This document shows, piece by piece, positions 20,709 to 21,689 of a stretch of 64,000 bases of DNA; the stretch's first letter is position 1; each line of letters starts with the position of its first letter. The position numbers and the translations under genes are program-made. Under the pieces are notes generated by a model that saw nothing but the letters and a program-made list of their open reading frames with translations, had not been told where the DNA came from and did not search any database. Source of the stretch: Heptranchias perlo (taxonomy: Eukaryota); assembly GCF_035084215.1 (NCBI RefSeq), contig NC_090370.1, positions 6,820,001-6,884,000 of the forward strand. Reading direction: 5' to 3'.

Positions 20709-21689
20709 TTAATATTCTTCTCCTTCCTCTTCTCCTTCCCCTTCAACAGAATCAACACCAACTTCTTCATAATCTTTCTCCAAAGCAGCCATGTCCTCAC
20801 GGGCCTCCGAGAACTCACCTTCCTCCATACCCTCACCAACGTACCAATGAACAAAGGCACGCTTGGCATACATCAGGTCAAACTTGTGGTCCAGGCGAGC
20901 CCAAGCTTCAGCAATGGCTGTGGTGTTGCTCAGCATACACACAGCTCGCTGAACCTTGGCCAGGTCACCTCCAGGTACCACAGTGGGAGGCTGGTAGTTG
21001 ATGCCAACCTTGAAACCAGTTGGACACCAATCCACAAACTGAATGCTACGTTTGGTTTTAATAGTAGCAATAGCTGCATTGACATCTTTTGGCACTACAT
21101 CACCACGGTAAAGGAGGCAGCAGGCCATGTACTTGCCATGGCGTGGGTCACATTTGACCATCTGGTTGGCGGGCTCAAAGCAAGCATTGGTTATCTCAGA
21201 CACAGAAAGCTGCTCATGGTAGGCTTTCTCAGCTGAGATAACTGGTGCATAGGTGGCCAATGGGAAGTGGATACGGGGGTATGGCACCAAGTTGGTCTGG
21301 AACTCTGTCAGATCAACATTCAGAGCACCATCGAAACGAAGGGAGGCTGTGATAGACGACACTATCTGGCTGATGAGGCGGTTCAGGTTGGTGTAGGTTG
21401 GTCGTTCAATGTCCAAGTTTCTTCGGCAGATGTCATAGATGGCTTCATTGTCAACCATGAAAGCACAATCTGAGTGCTCCAGGGTGGTGTGGGTGGTCAG
21501 GATAGAGTTGTAGGGTTCTACCACTGCTGTAGACACCTGTGGAGCTGGGTAGATGGAGAATTCAAGCTTGGATTTCTTGCCATAGTCAACCGAGAGACGC
21601 TCCATCAGCAGGGATGTAAAACCAGAACCAGTACCACCGCCAAAACTGTGGAAGACCAGGAAACCCTGGAGACCTGTGCATTGGTCAGC
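20709..21689 (-). CDS. TUBA1B: Tubulin alpha gene 1, exon 4 (A126 to C-terminal EEEGEEY-stop)
   Basis: 981 nt after a CAG acceptor. Contains GGGTGSG, NRLISQ (S232), KRSIQ (S340) and C-terminal EEY. S232/S340 and the position next to LMBR1L match TUBA1B; the isotype symbol is an inference. Confidence 0.95.

Follow-up and report, generated by a model that had tools for sequence, protein, structure and literature searches.

A 64,000-nucleotide window of the Heptranchias perlo genome (RefSeq assembly GCF_035084215.1, contig NC_090370.1, positions 6,820,001 to 6,884,000) contains two alpha-tubulin genes, here called A and B, which are orthologues of TUBA1B and TUBA1A. A third, gene C (TUBA1C), lies just beyond its end. 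The exons of A and B are nearly identical apart from a short island of divergence at codon 232, which encodes serine (S232) in gene A and glycine (G232) in gene B. This pattern is probably due to exon-limited gene conversion, with selection keeping glycine in one gene and serine in the other. The three genes would be old paralogues whose exons, alike as observed, have repeatedly been homogenised by non-allelic gene conversion. Selection would have removed conversions that moved codon 232 from the G232 gene to an S232 gene or back. Silent sites near the codon would then seldom be overwritten and would drift until saturated, producing the peak, which is about 20-25 bp wide. The matching locus, residue and island suggest that the G/S split was already present in the common ancestor of sharks and mammals, roughly 420-450 million years ago. 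A preliminary description of the window had proposed that conversion erases differences except at a selected isotype residue, and this proposal was supported with the amendments given below.

The coding sequences (CDS) of A and B differ at 20 of 1356 nt, in 19 codons, and their introns gave no alignment. Exon 4 (20709-21689 in A, 30926-31906 in B) aligned without gaps and differed at 12 of 981 nt. Seven of the 12 differences lie in 21369-21405 (31586-31622 in B) and only two (21114 and 20751) in the 660 nt toward the stop codon. The preliminary description had these counts right, as well as the assignments E220/D220 and S232/G232. Clustering was assessed by scan-statistic permutation (200,000 permutations each, with a 37-nt or 13-codon window placed anywhere). 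It was significant in exon 4 (P = 1e-5 for any site, 8.5e-5 at the codon level) and over the 20 differences of the whole CDS (P = 1.2e-4 and 5.9e-4, respectively). Window widths of 7 to 20 codons gave P = 5e-4 to 7e-3, so the permutation check suggested earlier came out significant across designs (P = 1e-5 to 7e-3). Synonymous divergence was 4 differences in 5.0 sites in codons 226-231 compared to 10 in 293.7 elsewhere.

With gene C as reference, six of the seven island differences were specific to the G232 gene B and located in codons 226-232 (21369-21387), comprising four synonymous codons and two bases of codon 232. The seventh, at codon 220, was specific to gene A, as B and C both have D220. 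E220 was present in the mammalian chains compared. The 37-bp island is a 19-bp core plus one unrelated change. Its description as spanning codons 220 to 232 holds for codons 226-232, and codon 220 was ruled out as part of it. The A/B pair is as first described, with gene C to be added to what had been a two-paralogue picture. The further protein differences between A and B are D33N and I122V. N33 and V122 of gene B (window positions 32529 and 32028) and D220 of B and C (31622) are unlike the mouse proteins. N33 and V122 are probably young, and no silent cluster surrounds codon 33 or 122.

Genes A and B were identified by gene order and 3' untranslated region (UTR) motifs, both of which are independent of the coding sequence. 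The block reads LMBR1-family(-), TUBA1B(-), TUBA1A(-), TUBA1C(+), peripherin(+). Between an LMBR1-family gene and peripherin there are thus three alpha-tubulin genes, with C on the strand opposite to A and B. We take the human order to be LMBR1L-TUBA1B-TUBA1A-TUBA1C-PRPH, the same as here. The gene B motif matched once in the window with 0.02 matches expected, and the gene A motifs also matched once (Table 1). The motif comparison covered A and B, and the motifs were chosen by eye, so the shuffle counts overstate their significance. Isotype residues agreed with this identification: G232 in 1A, S232 in 1B and 1C, and T287 with a short tail in 1C. Gene A has the S232/S340 state of PDB alpha-1B chains. 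The top PDB match of gene B exon 4 was alpha-1A, with G232. The best PDB matches of gene C exon 4 were alpha-1C chains, with S232, T287, T340 and the short tail in common. The A and B proteins contain the Pfam Tubulin and Tubulin_C domains. Residue 340 separates TUBA1A from TUBA1B in mammals (T340 in 1A, S340 in 1B), whereas both A and B have S340 here. This residue also varies among published Tub1C sequences and in horse (alignment of PMC4202323). As it is labile, S340 in gene B leaves the orthology by order and UTR intact.

That introns and UTRs are unalignable, and that each UTR has its own counterpart in mouse, shows the duplication to be old. In introns 2 and 3, alignment of A with B was no better than that of shuffled sequences, and identity ended 0-8 bases from the exon borders. 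Synonymous divergence between A and B was 0.034, compared to 0.54 for a paralogue located on a different contig. Silent sites can change freely, because 23 of 60 codons flanking the island (195-224 and 234-263) differ between Heptranchias and mouse while the three paralogues agree within each species; none of these codons grouped by locus (all by eye). The likeness could in principle come without conversion, from recent duplication or strong silent-site constraint, and the synonymous sequence of mouse Tuba1a is reported to matter (PMC9867703). Given the unalignable introns, the separate UTR counterparts and the flanking codons on which orthologues differ and paralogues agree, the probability of this is negligible. 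Intron 3 of gene B resembles that of gene C (Table 1) though the genes are inverted and 40 kb apart; the other intron pairs tested were unalignable. The likeness appears to be a conversion tract that crossed an intron. Gene B intron 3 showed no similarity to the matching stretch of L004, an alpha-tubulin locus on another contig.

The island was also found in mouse. Mouse mRNAs were taken from an alignment published for primer and antibody purposes (S9 Fig of PMC6697361), and all mouse counts were made by eye. There are 23 differences between Tuba1a and Tuba1b over 1356 nt, 10 of them in codons 225-233. All 10 are specific to Tuba1a, with Tuba1b and Tuba1c identical there. Seven of the 20 differing codons lie within 9 codons, which was reached in 0 of 100,000 permutations. 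Inside the window defined on mouse fall five of the 19 codons that differ between A and B (P = 9e-6). Over codons 229-232, pairing the sequences by locus gave a summed distance of 6 and pairing them by species gave 12, the two species providing too few sites for a supported tree. The prediction that the island would group by locus and the rest of the CDS by species was borne out for Heptranchias and mouse.

A second alpha-tubulin cluster of six loci was found on contig C7, approximately 400 kb from another type III filament gene. We take this gene to be desmin; the PDB comparison named only vimentin for both filament genes. L004 has S232 and a best match to TUBA4A-type chains, and L005 and L006 have G232. 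Introns and most UTRs of these genes were unalignable. The S/G pair L004/L005 differs at 38 of 930 nt. Five of its 33 differing codons lie in codons 225-233 (P = 9e-4), or 4 of 23 when only synonymous changes were counted (P = 1.5e-3). Two pairs sharing the residue had no differing codon there (A/C, S/S, 0 of 14; L005/L006, G/G, 0 of 31). Within the island, gene B differs from L005 at 3 positions and from gene A at 6, and gene A differs from L004 at 4 and from L005 at 7. Outside it more than 110 differences separate the clusters. Island distances summed to 7 by residue class and 12 by cluster (6 and 9 without codon 232), compared to 229 and 37 outside the island. In the inverted, divergent pair L009/L010 (C7:7704056-7748650), 21 of 28 silent differences were at most 5 codons from a replacement, with 10.7 expected.

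A one-off event or artefact, be it a short tract into gene B from a distant tubulin, clustered mutation or misassembly, would agree with the B island being separated by 3 differences from L005 and L006 on another contig and by 6 from its neighbours. Of the 14 other alpha-tubulin loci identified in the genome, however, not one matched the B island exactly. The same island is present in mouse RefSeq mRNAs and in the second cluster, and two genes at separate locations have the S-type form. This account is therefore highly improbable. Judging from human synteny, the two clusters would derive from vertebrate genome duplication. It is possible, at less than even odds, that the G232 and S232 core classes are older than the duplication that gave rise to the peripherin-linked cluster and the TUBA4A-like C7 cluster. 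Each cluster would then have kept one of each against constant conversion for about half a billion years, and residue 232 would be a hidden core isotype switch, perhaps acting together with a short mRNA element immediately 5' of it. The island distances, smaller by residue class than by cluster, support this reading. The two classes may instead have independent G-to-S origins, for which one base change is enough. Other loci, L008 (C1845) and L011-L017 (C629), were 77-81% identical to gene A, with the match breaking near codon 352-358, which suggests an extra intron. The seven copies on the one small contig C629 may be a divergent subfamily or a foreign contig.

Two biased forms of conversion were considered and rejected. 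The first, 3'-biased conversion of the cDNA type, fits the synonymous differences between A and B (9 in codons 2-225 and 1 in 233-435) but not mouse, where differences outside the island number 5 and 8 in the corresponding 5' and 3' parts. The second, a refuge from GC-biased conversion, is not general across pairs. Third positions in codons 226-232 were G or C in 2 of 7 codons in B compared to 7 of 7 in A and C; the C7 pair had 3 and 4 of 7 and mouse 4 and 6 of 9.

Residue 232 was compared across vertebrates in the protein alignment of PMC4202323. Counts are over rows with a header and residue 232 in the parts examined, with species read from row codes. Named vertebrate Tub1A rows had G232 in 6 of 6 (human, dog, cow, horse, anole and Xenopus). 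S232 was present in 7 of 8 Tub1B rows, and S232/T287 in 4 of 4 Tub1C rows, among which residue 340 varied. All four invertebrate deuterostome rows had G232, and G232 would be ancestral and S232 derived. In a fused teleost gene model, a G232 tubulin is followed by an S232/T287 tubulin and then by peripherin. Residue 340 is swapped between loci, so conversion crosses amino-acid differences. Gene C has clusters of its own silent and replacement differences at codons 286-289, at 340-342 and from 437 onward (the tail). T287, which is kept in the 4 Tub1C rows and in mouse, marks a probable second protected site in TUBA1C.

Conversion of exon 4 was simulated in two copies, with parameters tuned to the observed flanks, in a toy model with several calibrations off target. 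The calibrated conversion rate was about 60 or more per unit of silent divergence and the peak width of about 20-25 bp was reproduced. In 7 of 8 settings all 100 runs of neutral conversion lost the island; the one other setting kept it in 63 of 100 runs, with flanks rising to 0.22. Selection on codon 232 would thus fit better than neutral conversion in this model. A neutral trap was also considered, in which an old patch of mismatches blocks heteroduplex formation and conversion skips the patch without selection on residue 232. Cooperative rejection of mismatch-dense tracts kept the island in up to 83% of neutral runs, and silent differences lie near amino-acid differences in most pairs, as unconverted patches would give. 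The flanks usually diverged too, however. Over 36 settings of 60 runs, an island with flanks of 0.06 or less was seen in at most 20% of runs at T = 0.25 and at most 10% at T = 0.5, where T is silent changes per site. The trap would also have to arise in three separate pairs, no peak is present where residue 232 is shared (A/C and L005/L006), and residue 340 does get swapped between loci. It is considered quite unlikely.

The peak is not symmetric about a single selected site. Differing codons 5' (225-231) and 3' (233-239) of codon 232 numbered 4 and 0, 4 and 0, and 5 and 1 in the three S/G pairs. The total of 13 codons compared to 1 gives a binomial P of 0.002 if the pairs are independent, and they may share ancestry. 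Two protected sites gave this lopsided shape in 52-54% of runs, with the second site itself counted as a difference, compared to 8-9% of 200 runs for one protected site. Polarity of conversion tracts could also give the asymmetry. The protected target may be, or may include, a nucleotide element at about codons 226-234 of the TUBA1A-type mRNA or DNA (a hairpin, protein-binding site, or splice or stability signal), with the silent differences themselves under selection. The 5' asymmetry of all three S/G pairs is consistent with such an element. The G-type islands of B, L005 and L006 fold a predicted hairpin in which codons 226-229 pair with 231-234, at -9.1 and -10.4 kcal/mol compared to -1.2 and -2.0 for S-type islands. 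When mouse Tuba1a exon 4 is recoded wholesale with synonymous codons, its mRNA level falls and lethality results (PMC9867703). Ranked against synonymous recodings, however, the hairpin comes no higher than the top 4-9%, as do 3-4 of 27 other windows in each gene, and over 129 nt it was weak (z = -0.1 for B and -1.7 for L005). In B it largely follows from the glycine codon. It was missing from six other G232 genes in an 11-codon window, its pairing register was, by eye, not kept in mouse Tuba1a, and no silent base in codons 225-228 was diagnostic of class in all three pairs. A nucleotide element is therefore given only a small chance.

TUBA1A is a neuronal isotype, while TUBA1B and TUBA1C are broadly expressed. 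We take residue 232 to lie in the core helix H7. It is described as lying on the tubulin surface (PMC10294638). The microtubule assay of S232G proposed in the preliminary description has in part been published, for alpha-1C: alpha-1C(S232G) grows at the alpha-1A rate, slower than alpha-1C (koff 14.1 ± 6.8 compared to 1.7 ± 1.1; Diao et al. 2021, PMC8800519). The reverse swap had little effect, and the effects overall are modest. S232 would give the faster, longer-growing microtubules of the broadly used alpha-1B and alpha-1C, partly supported in vitro for alpha-1C, and G232 a more labile lattice in neuronal alpha-1A. S232 may be a derived lattice-stabilising variant, with G232 the ancestral state kept for the neuronal isotype. 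The functional importance proposed for S/G232 is suggested by its persistence and has an in vitro effect in one direction only (PMC8800519).

Several points weigh against the proposed explanation. Of the 47 codons at which the more diverged G/G pair L009/L010 differs, 3 lie in the 225-233 window (P = 0.14). In the simulations, selection on residue 232 kept an island of at least 5 differences in only 14-52 of 100 runs in 5 of 8 settings; one setting gave it in 4 of 100 runs, and the two where tracts stop at mismatches in none. One protected site seldom gave the lopsided shape, as stated above. Comparison at the DNA level spans two species. Alpha-1A(G232S) grew like alpha-1A (koff 9.3 ± 2.5 compared to 4.8 ± 3.6), and in that study most of the difference between isotypes was ascribed to the tails (PMC8800519). 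Published isotype labels are partly based on sequence, making the residue counts from PMC4202323 somewhat circular. The horse Tub1A and Tub1B rows in that alignment both have G232 and differ only at residue 340, which may reflect true conversion at the protected codon or a mistake in assembly or labelling. Horse thus stands against the earlier claim that the proximal and distal copies carry S232 and G232 in other species, which otherwise agrees with the Tub1A (6 of 6) and Tub1B (7 of 8) rows. That the split dates to the jawed-vertebrate ancestor agrees with the mouse island at the same codons of the same gene.

Divergence peaks under conversion have been described before (Innan 2003; Teshima and Innan 2008; PMC3924837, PMC2588116), with paralogues alike, a peak at selected residues that groups by locus and the rest grouping by species. 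The same was found here: old duplicates with flanks grouping by species and a significant local peak holding a fixed amino-acid difference. Known examples are exon 5 of the red and green opsins and Drosophila CG18281/CG17637. The opsins are approximately 30-40 million years old and are converted mainly in introns (PMC3924837, PMC2588116), whereas here exons were converted and introns were not. The tubulin peak also differs from the opsin peak in being approximately 20 bp around one codon, in recurring in a second cluster, in being lopsided and in spanning the shark-mammal split. The mechanism is a known one; the age, the single codon and the recurrence in two clusters are unusual. The mammalian TUBA1B-TUBA1A-TUBA1C cluster (PMC6697361, PMC4202323), retained in mammals, frog and anole, shares order, orientation, G232/S232/S232 in 1A, 1B and 1C, T287, the short third tail and the UTR motifs. 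In Heptranchias, by contrast, S340 and S289 are common to A and B, D220 is common to B and C, and N33 and V122 are present in B. High similarity of these genes was described as duplication or conservation (PMC6697361, PMC4202323), and the term 'gene conversion' occurred 0 times in the text available from PMC4202323. The alpha-1A/alpha-1C swaps (PMC8800519, PMC10294638) concern the same residue in vitro, as a minor determinant and without an evolutionary argument in the sections consulted. Protist tubulin arrays (Naegleria, PMC2115128; Leishmania, PMC1533823) contain homogenised paralogues that are not vertebrate isotypes. Copepod GOT1 paralogues (PMC3728101) are homogenised with divergence islands, and no deeply shared single-residue island is described in the parts consulted on these protist and copepod genes. 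No account of a conversion peak in these genes was found in the open-access literature (PubMed Central and bioRxiv), where the conversion results concerned protist tubulins.

The features of the window and its neighbourhood are listed in Table 1. Exon 1 of A and of B was predicted from an ATG and a donor site. Plain lists of open reading frames gave no identity for the flanking genes. The best matches of peripherin were sawshark (94%), rays (86% and 81%) and catshark (85%). Introns and spacers of the window contain ordinary repeats, for which we use presumed family names: broken reading frames of non-LTR (long terminal repeat) retroelements at 13390-18640, 51117-51953 and 52761-54883, and one repeat resembling a short interspersed element (SINE) with copies at 22082-22506, 39349-39776 and 49021-49488. 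Five tandem intermediate-filament copies with identical match scores, presumably keratin genes, were located at C49:7436562-7498206. They may be a recent duplication or another homogenised array.

Table 1. Features of the alpha-tubulin block in Heptranchias perlo. Positions are those of the window, or of contig C49 where so marked.
Feature	Position	Strand	Remarks
Gene A, TUBA1B orthologue (S232, E220, S340)	20709..24505	minus	GT/AG borders, open 1356-nt CDS
Gene A coding exons	24503-24505, 22976-23198, 22710-22858, 20709-21689	minus	1356 nt, 451 aa
Gene A, two collinear 3'UTR motifs common to mouse Tuba1b	20493..20540	minus	1 match, 0 in 100 shuffles
Island core, gene A, S-type	21369..21389	minus	codons 226-232, same as gene C
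Codon 220 (E in A; D in B and C)	21405..21407	minus	A-specific, outside G232 island
Gene B, TUBA1A orthologue (G232, D220, S340)	30926..35024	minus	GT/AG borders, open CDS
Gene B coding exons	35022-35024, 32400-32622, 32017-32165, 30926-31906	minus	1356 nt, 451 aa
Gene B 3'UTR motif common to mouse Tuba1a	30885..30903	minus	16/19 bases
Island core, gene B, G-type	31586..31606	minus	codons 226-232, 6 B-specific differences
Gene B intron 3	31907-32016	minus	97/110 aligned bases identical to gene C intron 3 (C49:6891814-6891926)
Gene C (L002), TUBA1C, S232	C49:6891206-6892901	plus	8 kb beyond window end; first exon not placed
LMBR1-family exons	C49:6792527-6795340	minus	~46 kb before gene A; LMBR1L or LMBR1
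Peripherin gene	C49:6944814-6962086	plus	intermediate-filament gene, 52 kb after gene C

It has long been asked whether tubulin isotypes that are almost identical have different protein functions or differ only in how they are regulated. The question is sharpest for TUBA1A, which is linked to brain malformations, and TUBA1B; these two differ at two residues. TUBA1A is not replaceable in mouse (PMC6697361). Gene conversion would in effect have carried out the residue swap naturally, tens of times in each lineage. Residue 340 was swapped between loci, while 232, and 287 in TUBA1C, almost never were, which would rank the residues by importance. Trees built from the CDS of these genes would be a misleading guide to their orthology and age. 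Conversion alleles at codon 232 would be candidate variants, liable to mis-assignment in short-read mapping. The question of protein or regulation for TUBA1A and TUBA1B would thereby become directly testable.
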